Assembly (NCBI GenBank): GCA_002923195.1 | Contig: BDTH01000035.1 | Location: forward strand, 1,146 to 65,145 | DNA from: a bacterium BMS3Abin15 | GTDB lineage: Bacteria > Patescibacteriota > Minisyncoccia > Moranbacterales > 2-12-FULL-40-10 | Length of the DNA: 64,000 bases | Direction: 5' to 3' | In this document: piece by piece, positions 16,092-32,700 of the stretch | Layout of the letters: every line of letters begins with the position of its first letter | Position numbering within the stretch: position 1 is the stretch's first letter | Made by a program: the position numbers and the translations under genes | The notes under the pieces: model-generated | What the model was told of the DNA's origin: nothing | The model's database searches: none | The model's input: only the letters and a program-made list of their open reading frames with translations

Positions 16092-17063
16092 CTATTTATT
16101 ATTTGGATTATTCCGTTTAATCGGCAGTGAAAAATAAAAGGCTGATCCCTCTTCCTCGACCGACTTGAACCATATTTTTCCCCCTGATTGATCAATAATA
16201 TTTTTAGCTATATACAGCCCCAGTCCGGTTCCTTCTGTTTGATACTTGGCAGCATTGTCACTACGGAAAAATTTCTGAAAAATTATATCATGCTGACTCC
16301 TAGGAATACCGATTCCATTATCTTTAACGCAAACCATAATTTCGTCATTCTTTGCATCAACGCTTATTTCAATATGTCCCTTACTTTTTATATATTTAAT
16401 TGCATTAGAAACGAAGTTATCAATTACCACCTTCATTCTTCTTCTGTCCGCTATAATTTCAGGGACAAAATCCGGCTTTATAAACTTTATTTCTATGTTG
16501 CTCGACTTGGCGAGAAATTTATTTTCCTCAATAACTTCTTCAACGACCTTGACTATGTCCATCTTCTCTTCAGTCAAAATAAACCTTCCTTGTTCTATTC
16601 TAACTACATCCAGGAGGTCATTTACCAATTTAATTATCTTGGTGTTTGAGTTGGTAATGGTCTTGATAATATCCTTCTGCTCCTGATTTAATAGTTTTCC
16701 GTGTTGCGAAAGTAAAAATTCGATTTCCCAGTTAACTTCTGTCAGAGGTGTTTTTAATTGATGAGAAGTAATAGAGATAAACTCTGATTTCATTTTATTA
16801 GCCCTAGCTACTTCCTCTATACTCTTTATAATAAAACTCCCGATAGTAAATAAAACTGCTACTACGGCTATTTCACTGAAAATAAGGATTTCCGGTGAAT
16901 AATTATTACGAGAAATGAAATAAATAGCTGTCATCGCAGTAACAATAACAACACCCATTAATATAAAGAGCACGCTTGGCGCTTGCCATACCTTCACTCC
17001 CAGTTCATTGGCCTGTTTTTTTATATTAAAATCGTCAACAATTCTTCTAATTATTCTTCTCAT
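16092..17063 (-). CDS. membrane sensor histidine kinase
   Basis: Two TM helices, H-box ITSHQLKTPLT, HATPase_c motifs DNGIGIP and GTGLGLYIAK. Confidence 0.85.
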   Translation of the reverse strand: MRRIIRRIVDDFNIKKQANELGVKVWQAPSVLFILMGVVIVTAMTAIYFISRNNYSPEILIFSEIAVVAVLFTIGSFIIKSIEEVARANKMKSEFISITSHQLKTPLTEVNWEIEFLLSQHGKLLNQEQKDIIKTITNSNTKIIKLVNDLLDVVRIEQGRFILTEEKMDIVKVVEEVIEENKFLAKSSNIEIKFIKPDFVPEIIADRRRMKVVIDNFVSNAIKYIKSKGHIEISVDAKNDEIMVCVKDNGIGIPRSQHDIIFQKFFRSDNAAKYQTEGTGLGLYIAKNIIDQSGGKIWFKSVEEEGSAFYFSLPIKRNNPNNK

Positions 17064-18960: not shown

Positions 18961-19087
18961 CTATTGAAATTTTAATTTATTAATATCTTAAGCCGAAGGC
19001 GACAACGCACGCAGAATTTTCCATTTAGTAAAATCATTGCTGGTGCTGGAGCTGGAGCTGGGGTCGCCACTTAACCTTATTGCATAA

Positions 19088-19250: not shown

Positions 19251-20273
19251 TTAGATAAAACGCTTTCTTATAATTCTCGACTGTAACTTCTCCGCATTTC
19301 CATGCTTTAGCAAACCTAAATAAGAATCAAGCGTTTTCGGTGCAGAATTTTCTTTTATTCTTTTCATCATCCTTCTTTTTGTTGTTGTCCTTAATATTCT
19401 GTGATCAAAAAAATTCACCCAACCGAGAAAATCAACTCCGGAATAGAGAGTTTCAATGAAAAGCTTATCAGGATGAAGTTCTAATTTCAACCTTTCATAA
19501 AGAAATCTTTTAATTTCTGGGATTAAATCCTTTAGCCATTCTTTGTTTTCCGAAAATATCACAAAATCATCAGCATAACGAATATAATATTTAACTTTTA
19601 ATTTATGTTTAATAAATTGGTCAAATTCATTCATATAAATATTTACGAAGAGTTGCGATGTCAGGTTTCCTAAAGGCAATCCAACATTAATCCTCCTCTC
19701 CTTTTCAAGGAGAGGGCGGGGTGAGGTAAAGCTACTAATAACTTCTCCTAAAAGCCACAATATTTTCTTGTTCGGAATATATCGCGCTAAAATTCCGAGT
19801 AAAATTTTATGGTCAATGCTGGCGAAGAACTTTTTAATATCGCATTTTAAAATCCAGCAAGTTTTTGCATTGTTCTTACTTATAATGTAAGCAAATTTCC
19901 GGAATCTGTTGATAGATTTATGCGTGCCCTTATCTAATCTGCAAGAATATGAATCGGCAATGAATGTTTTGTCAAAAAAGGGGTAAAGTTTTCGGTAAAT
20001 AGCGTGGTGTAATAATCGGTCACGGACAGTGGCTTTATGGATATTTCTCGGTTTGGGATCGGAAATATTAAAAGCTTGATAGCCGCCGTATTTGTAGGTA
20101 TGATTAAGAAGATCATTATGAAGCGAGAAAATATTGTCCATTAAATTCATCTGGAATATCTGCACATCCTTTTTCTGTTTCTTGCCACGCGAAAACTCTT
20201 TCCAGGCTTCTAGTAAATTGTCTAAGGAAATGACTTTATTATAATCTTTCTCAAATTTTACTTTTTCATTCAT
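19251..20273 (-). CDS. DGR-type reverse transcriptase
   Basis: RT motifs including RYADDFVIF (YxDD) and GLPLGNLTSQLFVNIY (the [LIV]GxxxSQ hallmark of DGR RTs). ~340 aa. Start placed at MNEKVKF (ATG 20273); the upstream extension to 20360 reads through a poly-G run. Confidence 0.9.
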   Translation of the reverse strand: MNEKVKFEKDYNKVISLDNLLEAWKEFSRGKKQKKDVQIFQMNLMDNIFSLHNDLLNHTYKYGGYQAFNISDPKPRNIHKATVRDRLLHHAIYRKLYPFFDKTFIADSYSCRLDKGTHKSINRFRKFAYIISKNNAKTCWILKCDIKKFFASIDHKILLGILARYIPNKKILWLLGEVISSFTSPRPLLEKERRINVGLPLGNLTSQLFVNIYMNEFDQFIKHKLKVKYYIRYADDFVIFSENKEWLKDLIPEIKRFLYERLKLELHPDKLFIETLYSGVDFLGWVNFFDHRILRTTTKRRMMKRIKENSAPKTLDSYLGLLKHGNAEKLQSRIIRKRFI

Positions 20274-20391
20274 TATTTTTCTTATTTTTGATATTTGATA
20301 TTTGATTTTTAATTTTCTATTATGACCCCCCCCCAACGGATTACCCGCCGTAATCGCCAAAGAAAAAGAAACTTATCAATTTTGGCTTGTT

Positions 20392-20691
20392 TTGCATCGC
20401 GATTTTCCCAAGACCGAACGCTATGGTTTGGGACGCAGAATTGATAATCTGTTTTTGGAAATCCTTGAGCTAAGTTTCACTGCCGCCTATCTCCCACCGG
20501 AGCATAAAATAATTTTCTTAGGTAAAACTATATCCCGTTTGGATGTTTTAAAATTCTTTCTGCAAACCGCGTGGGAAAATAAGCTCGTTCCTACTGATAA
20601 ATATGCCGAACTTTCTAAAAGATTGGAGGAAATTGGGCGGATGCTCGGCGGATGGAAAAAGGGACTGCAAAAGAAAACTCCCGCTACATAA
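20392..20691 (+). CDS. avd: Avd-like four-helix-bundle protein (23S rRNA IVS protein family), N-terminally interrupted
   Basis: FPKTERYGLGRRIDNLFLEILELS...LDVLKFFLQTAWE...EEIGRMLGGW pattern. The homologous frame continues upstream to 20326. An ATG at 20322 is out of frame by one nt across a C9 run (see findings). Confidence 0.7.
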   Translation: MHRDFPKTERYGLGRRIDNLFLEILELSFTAAYLPPEHKIIFLGKTISRLDVLKFFLQTAWENKLVPTDKYAELSKRLEEIGRMLGGWKKGLQKKTPAT

Positions 20692-20712
20692 GCAGGAGAA
20701 ATACAATAGTTT

Positions 20713-20831
20713 CGGGAGAACACCTGGTTGCCATTGTTCCACTCATTCGGATTCTCAACGGAGCAAGCATCCACGCTCCAGCCGACGCCATCCCAGCTGC
20801 AGCGGACCGTGCTAAGCACACCAGTCGTTCT
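20713..20831 (-). repeat. DGR template repeat (TR)
   Basis: About 115-119 nt match to 21168-21286. This copy carries A (minus strand) at nearly all mismatched positions and contains AAY codons (NPNEWNNGN). Confidence 0.85.
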
Positions 20832-21148
20832 CGTGCAAAAAACCATCCGCGCCACCATCCTTTGAATACTCTCCGGATTGAATCTTATTCGGGACTTCGA
20901 AGTCCGCCAGTTTCTTGCACCAATTCATGTATTTTTTGAAAGAAATTATTTCCATACTCTCGCGTAAGCCTTAACCGACGCAACTCTCGCAAAAATAATC
21001 CCAAAGCCATGACGCAAAAGCCGTAGCCGTTGCGTATCGCATGATTTCGGTTTTATTATATCAAAAATAAAAGACCCCCTCAAACTTCTGCAGATTTTGC
21101 AAAAATTCGAGAGGGTCAAAGTGTCAAAGAATCAAAGATTCAAAAGAT

Positions 21149-21811
21149 CTAAGATTCAGAGGAATTGCGGGAGAACACCTGGCCGCCACTGCTCCACTCA
21201 TACGGACTCCCAAAGGAGCAAGCACCCACGCTCCAGCCGACGCCATCCCAGCCGCAGCGGACCGTGCCAAGCACACCAGTCGGACAGTAAATATAGAAAA
21301 TATTGGCATATCCGTTAGTGAGTAAATCGCCTTTTTCGCCGTTTGGCTGCATTTCCATAAGGGCAAACATTTCAGCGAGGGTGGTTTCCGCTTTTTTGTC
21401 TCCACCCAGTTCGGCGATGATTGGCTTATCAACCGAACTCTTGCGCAATTTGTGATAACGAAGCGTGATTTCTGGAATCACCTCCTCGGTTTTACCAAGG
21501 AAATTTTTCCGGAAATTATCTCCAAGATAGGAAATTTTCACTTTCGCTTTCTTGCTCGTGTCTACGACAAAATGGTCGCGGGCGATGAATTCTTCGGTTG
21601 TCGCAGGGATAGTGACAGTACTGACGAGATCGAGAATATTTTCAGATCTCGGTTCAGTTTCTTGTCTACCTTGAATTGCTCTTATAAAAAGAGCAATTGC
21701 GTCAGTGGTGTTTTGGATAACCCACTGGCCATCTTCCTTTGATAATGGAGCAAGCTTATTTTGGTGCTCCACTAATGATGCTACTAATTTGGGAATCTGT
21801 TGTTCGGTCAT
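21149..21811 (-). CDS. DGR variable (target) protein, 220 aa, VR at extreme C-terminus
   Basis: SD aaggagg upstream of the ATG. C-terminal 40 aa (PTGVLGTVRCGWDGVGWSVGACSFGSPYEWSSGGQVFSRN) are encoded by VR. No signal peptide or TM helix seen. Confidence 0.85.
   Translation of the reverse strand: MTEQQIPKLVASLVEHQNKLAPLSKEDGQWVIQNTTDAIALFIRAIQGRQETEPRSENILDLVSTVTIPATTEEFIARDHFVVDTSKKAKVKISYLGDNFRKNFLGKTEEVIPEITLRYHKLRKSSVDKPIIAELGGDKKAETTLAEMFALMEMQPNGEKGDLLTNGYANIFYIYCPTGVLGTVRCGWDGVGWSVGACSFGSPYEWSSGGQVFSRNSSES
21168..21286 (-). repeat. DGR variable repeat (VR)
   Basis: Cognate of TR. Differs at TR adenine positions (A to G x9, A to T x1 in the 115-nt core). Confidence 0.85.
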
Positions 21812-22089: not shown

Positions 22090-22123
22090 TATTATACCAA
22101 ACAAATATTCCCTTTACTAGCAT
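22090..22123 (-). promoter_or_regulatory. promoter-like module, copy 1 (upstream of DGR target gene)
   Basis: 34-nt exact copy of 22945-22978. Minus strand reads TAGTAA-N17-(TGg)TATAAT, an extended -10. Confidence 0.5.
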
Positions 22124-22243
22124 TGTTTCATTATTATATTCATCCTATCATTATATATTCTCTTTCATCGTATATGCGAGGAAAGAGAATATATTTTCGG
22201 ATCTGTTTTTAATTCTGTTTATTTTTCTCTATATTTATTCGCT

Positions 22244-22867
22244 CTACATCTTGAAAGATTTTTTGACTACTTCTTCGTGAAGCAGGTTTTCGGCCTTGAT
22301 AATTTCCACATATTTCTCTACTTTGAACATTTCAGAAATAAATAATATTTCATCCTCACATTCATAAGGTATTATCCAGACGCTTTTTTGAAGCTGCTTA
22401 AAGCCGAGATTTTTCATTTTGTTCCTTAAAGCCTCCCGGGCGGAATTATATTTAATTGGAATATCGAAAATAACAATCCGCCATTTTCCATCCCACAATT
22501 TCGGCTTTTTTATGGAAACTGAACCAAGGGCCATTTTAAATATCCGTTTTTTTCCTAAATTCGTCAGCTTGACTACAATTTTCCCGTTTTTTTCTCTGAT
22601 TATTTTTATGAATTTTTTTCTTTTCAGCTTAGCAATAGCATTTGATACTTGTTTCTTGGAATATTTTTTAATCGGTTTTCCTTTATCACTTTGAAAGCTT
22701 TCTACTAATCTAAAAATATTAGGCACTACTGCTCCCACAAAAACCACTCCTCCTAAGGCTAAAGAGGCCAGCAGTAGTTTTGTAATTGTGGACGGAACAG
22801 AGTCAGAGTGAAGAAAATCTTCTATTCTTTCTCCTATCGGAATTTTTGTTTCTTTTTCCCTTGGCAT
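22244..22867 (-). CDS. PaaX-like / Cas2-fold-domain putative regulator with N-terminal TM helix
   Basis: wHTH-like segment (SNAIAKLKRKKFIKIIREKNGKIVVKLTNLGKK) followed by WRIVIFDIPIKYNSAREALRNKMKNLGFKQLQKSVW, the PaaX middle-domain pattern. Confidence 0.55.
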   Translation of the reverse strand: MPREKETKIPIGERIEDFLHSDSVPSTITKLLLASLALGGVVFVGAVVPNIFRLVESFQSDKGKPIKKYSKKQVSNAIAKLKRKKFIKIIREKNGKIVVKLTNLGKKRIFKMALGSVSIKKPKLWDGKWRIVIFDIPIKYNSAREALRNKMKNLGFKQLQKSVWIIPYECEDEILFISEMFKVEKYVEIIKAENLLHEEVVKKSFKM

Positions 22868-22944: not shown

Positions 22945-22978
22945 TATTATACCAAACAAATATTCCCTTTACTAGCAT
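22945..22978 (-). promoter_or_regulatory. promoter-like module, copy 2 (upstream of PaaX-like gene)
   Basis: 34-nt exact repeat of 22090-22123. Further degenerate similarity continues on one side. Confidence 0.5.
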
Positions 22979-23207
22979 ATACGAGAAAAGAGGATATTGA
23001 ATTATTAGAATTGGTGTAAAGACAGACTAAAGAATATTAAAAAAATAATTGGGGGCTAAATTTTACCTGGTGACAGAGCAGGGATCACTACTAGCCTCGA
23101 CTAACGCGAGTCTGGGAAGACAGGGCAAGTATCTCCATTAGATCTTAAATTCTATGACCCCAGTAGCAGAACCTTCGGCTCGCTACGGGGCAGGCATCCC
23201 CGTCCTA

Positions 23208-30843: not shown

Positions 30844-32700
30844 TTATATCTCAATAATAACAGGCAGAACCATGGGTCTCCTTTCGGTTTTTTGGAATAG
30901 GAAAGACCCGACAGCTTCGCGAATATTGTTTTCAATAAATCTTTTATCTATTAAGGTGTTTTTGGAAGTTGTATCATTGACTACTTTTTTCACTTTACGC
31001 TTAGTCTCGTTAACTAAGTCAAAATTTTCTTTAACGTAGATAAACCCGCGGGAAGTTACCTGGATATTATGAACTACTTCTTTTGTCCGACTATCAATCA
31101 ATACTGTAATAACAAACATCCCATCGGTTGATAAAACTTGCCGGTCGCGAAGAACTATTTGTCCGACATCGCCAACGCCTAGTCCGTCAACAAAAACATA
31201 ATCAGTATTCACCTTTTTAGATAAGACATTGGCTTTTTCATTTTTGAATTCAATTACACTTCCATTATCTAAAACAAATATTTTATCATTGGGAAATCCT
31301 ATATCTATCGCCAACTTTTCAGCTTCCTTAAGAAAGAAATGGTTGGCATAAACAGGAATGAAATAAGTAGGATCGACTTGTTTGATCATATCCTTTATAT
31401 CTTCCTTATTACAATGTCCGCTGATATGAACATCCATGATGTCACTGTGAATAACATTGTCGCACTTGCGGTAAAGATTATCCTTTAATCTTTGAATGGA
31501 TCTTTCGTTGCCTGGAATTATAGAAGAAGAAAATATGATTGTATCAGTCTTTTTTATTTTAATATGCCGATGGCTATCGGTCACTATTCTACTCAATACC
31601 GCATTCCCTTCTCCCTGAGCTCCGGTACAGACTACCACTACTTTATTGTCAGGATAGTCGGATATCTTGTTCACCGGAACCACAACGTCTCTTGGGATCT
31701 TGACATAACCTAATTCTCTGGAGATTTCCATATTCATCTTCATGCTGTATCCGTCAATAGATGCCTTTTTGCCAATTTTTTTAACGTAGTTTAAGATTTC
31801 TCCGACCCTCCTGACCTGCGAAGAAAAAGTTCCGATAATAACCCTTCCGGGGGCATTACTAATAATGCTCTGCAATGTTTCATACATCTCCCTTTCCGAA
31901 GGAACATCTTTCCCTTCTTCAATAGAGCCTAGGCTTTCTAGCATTAGAATTGTAGGACGAGGCAATTTAGCCAAATTACTATAAGAAATGGGCTTGTGAT
32001 CAATGGGATCTTTATCCATCGTCCAGTCTCCTGGATGAACCACTGTTCCGGCTGTGGTGTTAATGGTAACTCCTACTGCATCCATAATGGAGTGCTCAAT
32101 ATCAAAGAATCCGATATTAAATTTGCCCAATCTCATTTTTTCGTTAACTGATTTAATCTGAATGGTTTTAAGGTTAGCCGTAGATCCTTTCTTGTAATCT
32201 TCCGTCTTTCTTTTGATTAAGGCCAGTGTTAAATCACGGCCAATTATAGGAGGATATCCCAGTTCTTCCAAAAGAATCGGAGCCGCTCCTATGTGGTCCA
32301 AATGTCCATGGCTAAAAATAACTCCGCGGATATTTTTTTCCTTTCCCTTAAGATAGCTGATATTAGGAATGATGTAATCAATTCCCGGCATATCTTCTTC
32401 GGGAAATTGAAATCCCATATCTAATATAACTATATCTTTTTCATATTCAAATATAGTCATGTTACGACCCACCTCTTCCATCCCCCCCAAAGGAATTATG
32501 CGCAAAGTTCCTTCTTTTGAGGAAGAAGGCTGTTCACTTGAACCTCTGTAGGAAGCTACTTTTGCATTACGAAAATGCCCGCTACTTCTTTTCGGATTAA
32601 ATTTTCTTTTTTTTCTTTTCCGGCTCCTGCCAGAAGATGATCCGCCGGACGGCGTTGTGTGAACAATTCCGTCTACGGCCATTGTCTTTTTCGGTATCAT
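30844..32700 (-). CDS. rnj: ribonuclease J (metallo-beta-lactamase / beta-CASP) with a basic N-terminal extension
   Basis: HGHLDHIG motif, beta-CASP region and C-terminal domain. ~65-aa Arg/Lys/Ser-rich N-terminal tail. Confidence 0.85.
   Translation of the reverse strand: MIPKKTMAVDGIVHTTPSGGSSSGRSRKRKKRKFNPKRSSGHFRNAKVASYRGSSEQPSSSKEGTLRIIPLGGMEEVGRNMTIFEYEKDIVILDMGFQFPEEDMPGIDYIIPNISYLKGKEKNIRGVIFSHGHLDHIGAAPILLEELGYPPIIGRDLTLALIKRKTEDYKKGSTANLKTIQIKSVNEKMRLGKFNIGFFDIEHSIMDAVGVTINTTAGTVVHPGDWTMDKDPIDHKPISYSNLAKLPRPTILMLESLGSIEEGKDVPSEREMYETLQSIISNAPGRVIIGTFSSQVRRVGEILNYVKKIGKKASIDGYSMKMNMEISRELGYVKIPRDVVVPVNKISDYPDNKVVVVCTGAQGEGNAVLSRIVTDSHRHIKIKKTDTIIFSSSIIPGNERSIQRLKDNLYRKCDNVIHSDIMDVHISGHCNKEDIKDMIKQVDPTYFIPVYANHFFLKEAEKLAIDIGFPNDKIFVLDNGSVIEFKNEKANVLSKKVNTDYVFVDGLGVGDVGQIVLRDRQVLSTDGMFVITVLIDSRTKEVVHNIQVTSRGFIYVKENFDLVNETKRKVKKVVNDTTSKNTLIDKRFIENNIREAVGSFLFQKTERRPMVLPVIIEI

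Follow-up and report, generated by a model that had tools for sequence, protein, structure and literature searches.

A conserved, length-unstable repeat at the 5' end of avd may gate hypermutation in diversity-generating retroelements of Patescibacteria

Introduction

Why should an accessory gene of a hypermutation system carry, directly after its likely start codon, a run of nine cytosines that leaves the rest of the gene out of frame? The question is raised by a diversity-generating retroelement (DGR) in a 64,000-nt stretch of contig BDTH01000035.1 (assembly GCA_002923195.1) of bacterium BMS3Abin15, a member of the Moranbacterales; this whole stretch is referred to here as the window. The gene is avd, which encodes the DGR accessory protein Avd. 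An original prediction, made from the letters of the window, had read the 5' C-tract as a candidate slipped-strand ON/OFF switch, and the conserved tract and the one-C polymorphism that we found in related assemblies support that reading at the assembly level. We consider it probable that a conserved, length-unstable repeat in avd gates Avd, and hence the hypermutation of the DGR.

Results

The avd frame of the window is offset by one nucleotide from its likely start codon

The elements on which the argument depends are listed below (+, forward strand; -, reverse strand).

20218..20245, +, sigma-70-like promoter match TTGTCT-16-TATAAT upstream of avd, within the 5' coding region of the reverse transcriptase gene; a consensus match only
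20322..20324, +, ATG, likely avd start codon, out of frame with the Avd frame at C9
20326..20334, +, C9 homopolymer, a simple-sequence repeat within the 5' end of the avd coding sequence, beginning 4 nt past the ATG
20326..20691, +, avd reading frame with stop codon TAA at 20689-20691, on the strand opposite to the reverse transcriptase, template repeat and target gene
20351..20353, +, out-of-frame TAA that spans the conserved Val-Ile codons (GTA ATC) and is the stop met from the ATG at C10
20353..20355, +, ATC, a rare start in translation table 11 and the only non-canonical candidate before helix 1 is lost; NCBI start of protein P0001
20392..20394, +, TTG, first canonical in-frame start, use of which would delete helix 1
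19251..20273, -, DGR reverse transcriptase (RT), 340 aa from ATG 20273, with LGNLTSQ and YADD motifs and an RVT_1 match (2.3e-26); divergent from avd
20710..20827, -, template repeat (TR), a 118-nt repeat 90% identical to the variable repeat
21165..21282, -, variable repeat (VR), at the 3' end of the target gene
21149..21811, -, DGR target gene, 220 aa, closed by the VR

The window sequence agrees with what had first been read from it: the ATG at 20322 is followed by an A at 20325 and then by C9, and the Avd frame lies at +1 relative to this ATG. The Avd frame is open only from 20326, because a TGA at 20323-20325 closes its upstream side. Computed open reading frames (ORFs) confirmed that C8 or C11 would join the ATG to the Avd frame. 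With C8 the ORF is 122 aa long (MTPPNGLPAVIAKEKETY...), close to the predicted length of about 121 aa, and with C11 it is 123 aa long (MTPPPNGL...) and would encode T-P-P-P, as do the homologs. Among the homopolymers of all four bases, the tract is the longest in the window (37% G+C), where the runner-up runs are 7 for C, 6 for G and 8 for A or T; the expectation for a C run of at least nine under independent, identically distributed bases is 0.03. At this length it falls within the hypermutable range for 5' coding tracts of contingency loci (about 7-8 or more for G or C). The second-longest G/C homopolymer of the window is a C7 on the plus strand at 32482-32488, inside a 618-aa ORF on the minus strand (30844-32700).

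The repaired protein matched the Pfam family bAvd (PF22296) with 53.2 bits, above the cut-off of 40, and the NCBIfam model DivGenRetAVD (NF033474) with 66.6 bits, under the equivalog cut-off of 80. The DivGenRetAVD match aligned residues 10-113 to positions 3-104 of a 104-position profile, and homology therefore begins at about 20350, where it had been placed. AlphaFold2 was given the exact window translation from 20326, with residues counted from that position, and returned a four-helix bundle (helices at residues 8-24, 29-53, 58-84 and 90-117) with a predicted local distance difference test score (pLDDT) of 92.3. Since the TTG at 20392 is residue 23 and helix 1 spans residues 8-24, a start at this codon would delete helix 1, as the prediction had held. 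Its further statement that TTG is the sole start-like codon stood for canonical starts, of which TTG is the first; the ATC at 20353 is also in frame, and NCBI calls a near-identical 112-aa protein from it (P0001, from a Candidatus Moranbacteria metagenome-assembled genome, MAG). By Foldseek, the model matched Avd of Bordetella phage (4dwl; template-modelling (TM) score 0.80/0.90) and the Avd chains of a DGR ribonucleoprotein (8ub7; TM about 0.8-0.9). These matches came from the fold search; a sequence-profile search of the PDB with the Avd alignment gave none.

The TR and VR of the window differ at 12 positions, 11 of which are adenines in the TR. The lone non-adenine difference is a G in the TR (about 20759) against a T in the VR (about 21214), read on the minus strand. 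Pfam gave no match for the 220-aa target protein. The avd gene is inverted between TR and RT, which is architecture B3, TR-(avd)-RT, found in 90% of DGRs of the candidate phyla radiation (CPR) (Wu et al. 2018, PMC5758913). With RT, TR/VR pair, Avd and the CPR-type layout all present, the locus is a complete DGR.

A C-run occupies the same position of avd across Patescibacteria

Species-representative genomes and JGI metagenomes were scanned for homologous loci, which yielded 160 further loci at 58-87% identity, assigned by their records to Moranbacteria, Magasanikbacteria, Paceibacterota, Parcubacteria, Taylor-, Lloyd-, Nomura- and Vogelbacteria, among others. A tract was scored as a run of at least five Cs within 70 nt upstream of the codons for the conserved Lys-Glu-Lys-Glu (KEKE codons). 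The original prediction had named as a refuting outcome that orthologs would lack any homopolymer and start at the downstream TTG. The opposite was seen: 160 of the 172 homologous Patescibacteria loci, representing 109 distinct flank groups, carry a C-run at the same position. Lengths range from C6 to C15 with a mode at 9-10 (C6, 2; C7, 7; C8, 9; C9, 32; C10, 47; C11, 15; C12, 5; C13-15, 3). Only five other C or G runs of at least seven occurred in 512 kb of flanking DNA.

The position of the tract is fixed relative to avd. The distance from the tract end to the KEKE codons has a median of 23 nt and a standard deviation (sd) of 3.1 nt, and that from the tract to the RT start codon has an sd of 56 nt and ranges from -59 to 279 nt. 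Seen on the RT strand, the tract is a G-run located 53-61 nt upstream of the RT start in the window, and in the other loci the median is 22 nt. As regards a possible N-terminal extension of RT across the tract, the RT frame is open there in 44 of 76 loci, a share that we do not regard as informative.

Many of the relatives L021-L180 (e.g. L021:2960-3040) have avd and RT on opposite strands with overlapping 5' ends, and the conserved Avd N-terminus M-x-Q-L-N-F-H-N and the RT start (ATGAAAATTCAATTG...) are reverse complements. In those relatives the promoter of either gene must therefore be located within the other. One MAG (LacPavin Moraniibacteriota, L026:2900-3030) carries a deletion that fuses internal RT sequence to the Val-Ile-Leu-KEKE codons of avd; it removes both 5' ends and the repeat, leaving a genuinely decayed DGR. 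Viral contigs contained no relatives of the Avd family of the window, and an origin of this Avd as a phage module was rejected on that ground.

Coding constraint follows the tract, and its frame state is random

We then compared the codons after the tract across the 109 lineages. They encode Pro-x-Val-Ile and then Lys-Glu-Lys-Glu, and are near-invariant at the first two codon positions and free at the third; the entropies of the P-x-V-I codons at positions 1, 2 and 3 were 0.08/0.18/1.82, 0.26/0.18/1.55 and 0.70/0.00/1.29. To judge from this sequence pattern, the region bears the mark of a sequence translated in the Avd frame. Only two or three codons separate the tract from the conserved Pro codon, and in the window this interval contains no start codon, canonical or not. 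In homologs that lack a tract, the frame continues without interruption from an upstream ATG (e.g. MTFSTNRGLPVVITKEKE and MTSNTLQTSPAVILKGKE). The downstream coding constraint, the absence of a start in between and the read-through of the tract-less homologs together mean that ribosomes must pass the tract from the upstream ATG.

With the upstream ATG taken as the start, we classified 120 distinct tract-bearing alleles. In frame were 38 (32%), which is about one third (binomial p=0.77) and slightly under the 45 expected for a random frame; 44 (37%) would need one C fewer, 30 (25%) one C more, and 8 were ambiguous. Allowing GTG and TTG starts as well raised the in-frame share to 35%. All four tract-less lineages were in frame (Fisher p=0.012). 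Each of the 73 complete out-of-frame lineages retains an intact stretch of 109-137 codons from KEKE to the stop. Out-of-frame alleles are thus otherwise intact, as in contingency loci, where the change is reversible and is not decay.

GTA is used for the conserved Val after the tract in 62 of 102 lineages; of the Val codons in the rest of avd, 83 of 360 are GTA (Fisher p=3e-12). Just after the repeat, the GTA yields an out-of-frame TAA in 72 of 109 lineages, at position -8 relative to the KEKE codons. The TAA may cut short out-of-frame translation as a selected 'hidden stop'; more speculatively, it could be a site of termination and re-initiation at the adjacent ATC or ATT codon.

Sister genomes differ by a single C in the tract

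A Moranbacteria lineage of the Rifle aquifer (MFRX01000034) has the same layout, with the sequence ATGACTATTATGA-Cn-AAGACC. Seven of its contigs carry C11 and encode a 127-aa Avd (P0003, MTIMTPPPKTSPAVII...), and 13 carry C10 and are annotated with a 100-aa fragment (P0100). A one-C indel was the sole difference between L017 (C11) and L010 (C10) in 6304 aligned nt, the VR included. Likewise, a one-C indel in the tract separated L109 from L104 (4049 nt), L030 from L106 (4383 nt) and L151 from L149 (3858 nt), with no other difference in any of the three pairs. Tract length was polymorphic in 10 of the 22 flank groups that have at least two loci. Frame-changing polymorphism among very close genomes, by which contingency loci are recognized, is present here and includes a pair of one in-frame and one out-of-frame allele. 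The in-frame homologs start at an ATG upstream of the tract (e.g. P0003, MTIMTPPPKTSPAVII, and P0017, MTPPPSGLPAVIA).

Assemblies often break at the tract: five contigs (L102, L107, L130, L139 and L157) stop within it or at its edge, and scaffold gaps abut it in three others (L012, L042 and L074). Such ends and gaps are expected where reads disagree on length.

The window lineage has two out-of-frame haplotypes with different VRs

The lineage of the window was represented by the window itself and nine contigs with an identical RT, drawn from SPAdes-type, MEGAHIT and Logan assemblies and an NCBI MAG; many of these contigs come from few samples. The prediction had allowed that the true tract might have a single length that restores the frame. 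At the consensus level, the ten assembled sequences showed only C9 (7/10) and C10 (3/10), and neither C8 nor C11 (0/10). The lengths were reproducible, with C9 in both of two different assemblies of DRR093003 and C10 in both assemblies of DRR093004.

Two of the C10 contigs (L002 and L006) have a VR that differs from the window VR at about 14 positions, and all 12 differences between the VR of this haplotype and the TR of the window fall at adenines. C9 and C10 are two real haplotypes, each with its own VR. As the alleles are tied to VRs that differ at TR adenines, the DGR must have been active after the alleles split; it diversified the VR in this lineage even though C9 and C10 are both out of frame.

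Other differences were also seen between these assemblies. The C10 haplotype has about 11 differences in the target gene outside the TR-homologous VR, upstream of it (window 21308-21404), and L002 differs further in a cluster within a histidine-kinase gene (16569-16682). Almost no other differences occur in the region compared, a pattern that hints at local recombination or at an older, wider VR. A 6-bp indel (CCAGCA, 19038-19043) separates same-lineage assemblies about 210 nt downstream of the RT stop (19251), upstream of the start of a chaperonin gene.

Different repeats replace the C-tract at the same site

CCC makes up 23.6% of the other Pro codons in avd, and because of this low share the all-CCC Pro run does not look like a choice made at the protein level. 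One sub-clade (L048, L053, L127 and L146) has (CA)n at the site of the tract. An exhaustive profile search for distant Avd proteins, which returned 1,881 representatives at E up to 1e-3, added (GA)11 at the same site in L181, giving YRERERERELPV, and (CT)n in L182, giving STLSLSLSLEN; pure C8-C10 runs occur again in more distant representatives (L183-L186). Since four repeat types encode unrelated peptides at one position, the selected property appears to be the mutability of the DNA. We had also considered Pro-Pro-Pro as a conserved protein motif, which is ruled out by the 24% use of CCC elsewhere together with the HTHT, RERE and SLSL peptides encoded instead.

Other features near the DGR

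Two hairpins flank the TR region.

20678..20698, -, terminator-like hairpin on the TR/RT strand, directly after the TR and overlapping the avd stop codon; a consensus match only
21073..21117, -, second terminator-like hairpin, right after the target gene

As terminator-like hairpins follow both the target gene and the TR, the arrangement suggests that the TR is perhaps a separate short transcript and is not co-transcribed with RT. Between the target gene and the TR, downstream of a promoter-like site at 21083-21055 (-), lies a full-length match to the Rfam RT-9 RNA (RF03080) at 20919-21037 (-) that is below threshold (30.3 bits against a gathering cut-off of 46.1; E=0.035). The match may correspond to a structured 5' portion of the TR transcript. 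Rfam had no family at the tract, and no gathering-level match was obtained in 20 related loci.

Beside the DGR is a gene with a PaaX_M domain (22244-22867, -). It is flanked by a perfect 34-nt direct repeat (22090-22123 and 22945-22978) and by imperfect 46-nt inverted repeats (22155-22200 and 22952-22997), which may mark a duplicated regulatory region or a small mobile unit.

Discussion

How a C-tract could gate Avd

Under the gating reading, translation would enter at the ATG at 20322 and run through the C-tract, and replication slippage that gains or loses one C would put the four-helix-bundle Avd in or out of frame. The window would then carry, with C9, an out-of-frame allele, and such alleles presumably make no functional Avd. 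Because Avd is required for mutagenic retrohoming in the DGRs that have been studied, the repeat would act as an on/off gate on VR hypermutation. Switching would take place in the DNA, probably at a high rate within populations, and the gate would be stochastic, heritable and reversible, with only a sub-population diversifying its VR at any time.

Several points weigh against this reading. Neither a search of 5.8 billion proteins nor any of the assemblies yielded an in-frame (C8 or C11) form of the window lineage. Each allele of this lineage looks stable across samples, so that any switching is too slow to scramble the consensus, and consensus assemblies cannot reveal length heterogeneity within a population. 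Illumina and especially Nanopore reads have raised indel error at C9-C11 runs, and some length calls may be wrong. The frame states are random, and an in-frame fraction no higher than random also fits slippage at the level of RNA or the ribosome. Finally, it is in the Bordetella phage system that Avd is known to be required; that it is essential in the DGRs of CPR bacteria as well is presumed.

Alternative explanations

The explanation that fares best against gating is recoding, in which slippage of RNA polymerase or of tRNA-Pro on CCC-C would restore the frame in some products; small amounts of Avd would then come from every genotype, and the tract would serve as a constitutive attenuator. 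Near start codons, CCC-C motifs readily undergo +1 slippage, and RNA polymerase can slip on long homopolymers. The C-run does contain CCC-C motifs; no stimulatory element was identified, and no systematic search was made for one. Recoding would account for the random frame states, for the clear purifying selection on Avd with ORFs intact in out-of-frame alleles, and for the diversified VR of the window lineage. On the other hand, the orthologs have no conserved direction of shift, unlike programmed frameshifts of the prfB or dnaX type, and the dinucleotide repeats (CA)n, (GA)n and (CT)n suit replication slippage but are poor substrates for slippage by the ribosome or by elongating RNA polymerase. 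Moreover, length changes at the DNA level were the only differences between near-identical genomes. On balance we regard recoding as unlikely.

That avd has been inactivated in the window lineage and that its DGR is dead or decaying would agree with the two known alleles, C9 and C10, being out of frame and with the in-frame allele not being on record. We hold this to be very unlikely, since the ORF beyond the tract is intact, the RT is identical and intact on all 10 contigs, the TR/VR differences are adenine-specific and the VRs of the two haplotypes differ at adenine-templated sites; about two thirds of the 109 lineages are out of frame without further decay.

The tract could instead act on the opposite strand, as a poly-G element in the RT promoter or 5' untranslated region or in a TR-RT RNA, with an incidental effect on the avd frame. 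The G-run does lie upstream of the RT start codon on the RT strand, and C or G tracts in promoters are known to bring about phase variation, as in the Bordetella fim genes. The spacing to the RT start, however, varies widely, whereas that to the KEKE codons is tight; a cis element inside an essential ORF would be expected to be restricted to in-frame lengths, and no such restriction was seen; none of the promoter-like matches on the minus strand includes the tract, and no Rfam family lies there. Such an element therefore has very little probability. A promoter-spacer homopolymer of the Bordetella fim or Neisseria opc type was rejected separately, since the distance to RT is not conserved and the tract is downstream of the avd ATG.

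A sequencing or assembly error hiding a true C8 or C11 tract in an ordinary gene is scarcely credible: it would fit the error-prone nature of long G/C homopolymers and the breaks of contigs and scaffolds at the tract, and the comparison is at the assembly level, but all 10 same-lineage sequences have C9 or C10, two assemblies of the same run agree, the lengths are tied to distinct VR haplotypes, an in-frame share of 32% among 120 alleles would need full randomisation, which is unrealistic for mostly Illumina assemblies, and the tract-less homologs are all in frame.

Relation to known systems

The gating reading places avd near the simple-sequence-repeat contingency loci of Neisseria, Haemophilus, Campylobacter and Helicobacter, in which a G/C homopolymer of at least eight lies a few codons past the start, one-nt indels shift the frame, both states occur in otherwise identical genomes and the ORF stays intact. 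It differs from them in that avd is an accessory gene of hypermutation and not a surface-structure or restriction-modification gene, in that its repeat is found at one codon position across many classes of Patescibacteria with at least four interchangeable types, and in that consensus alleles are in frame no more often than by chance. As in phasevarions, the repeat lies in a gene that controls a downstream programme, by which one stochastic switch would be amplified, but the programme here is adenine-directed mutagenesis of one target gene and not methylation-dependent expression. Programmed frameshifting and transcriptional slippage (prfB, dnaX, insertion sequences, the poly-A tracts of endosymbionts) share a homopolymeric slippery run in coding sequence, from which products of a different frame could come with the DNA unchanged; avd lacks a conserved direction of shift and has dinucleotide repeats at the same site in relatives.

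With the B3 DGRs of CPR bacteria and with the DGR of Bordetella phage BPP-1, the window locus shares an RT with LGxxxSQ and YADD motifs and adenine-specific TR/VR differences at the 3' end of the target. The avd of BPP-1 is co-oriented and is not known to have such a repeat. The survey of CPR DGRs (PMC5758913) does not contain the word 'homopolymer', and its single mention of 'frameshift' concerns a frame shift of the VR. In our full-text searches and in the DGR surveys and reviews consulted we found no mention of a homopolymer or frameshift in avd or of DGR phase variation, though Paul et al. 2017 (Nat Microbiol), the main paper on CPR DGRs, may mention it. Only partial transcriptional control has been reported for the DGRs of Bacteroides, a Bordetella DGR has been rebuilt in E. 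coli (PMC12875486), and our search for literature on the control of CPR DGRs returned nothing. Phase variation by simple sequence repeats is a well-known class of mechanism. What appears to be new is the gating of a hypermutation system, the conservation at one codon position on the scale of a phylum and the interchangeable repeat types.

Implications

In about two thirds of the tract-bearing loci, gene callers shorten avd to calls of 99-113 aa or overlook it. DGR surveys may therefore score such cassettes as lacking avd and under-count the gene in CPR genomes, and tools for polishing MAGs may 'correct' the avd tract.

We lean, if only somewhat, towards a still wider conclusion, that hypermutation is phase-variable across Patescibacteria: selection would keep the repeat, most cells would be DGR-silent and a stochastic minority would be on. 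If true, the repeat would act as a heritable 'mutator of the mutator', and no regulatory mechanism built into CPR DGRs would have been described before it. A slippage switch conserved in avd would explain how these tiny-genome symbionts contain the cost of hypermutating a binding protein and can still diversify it.

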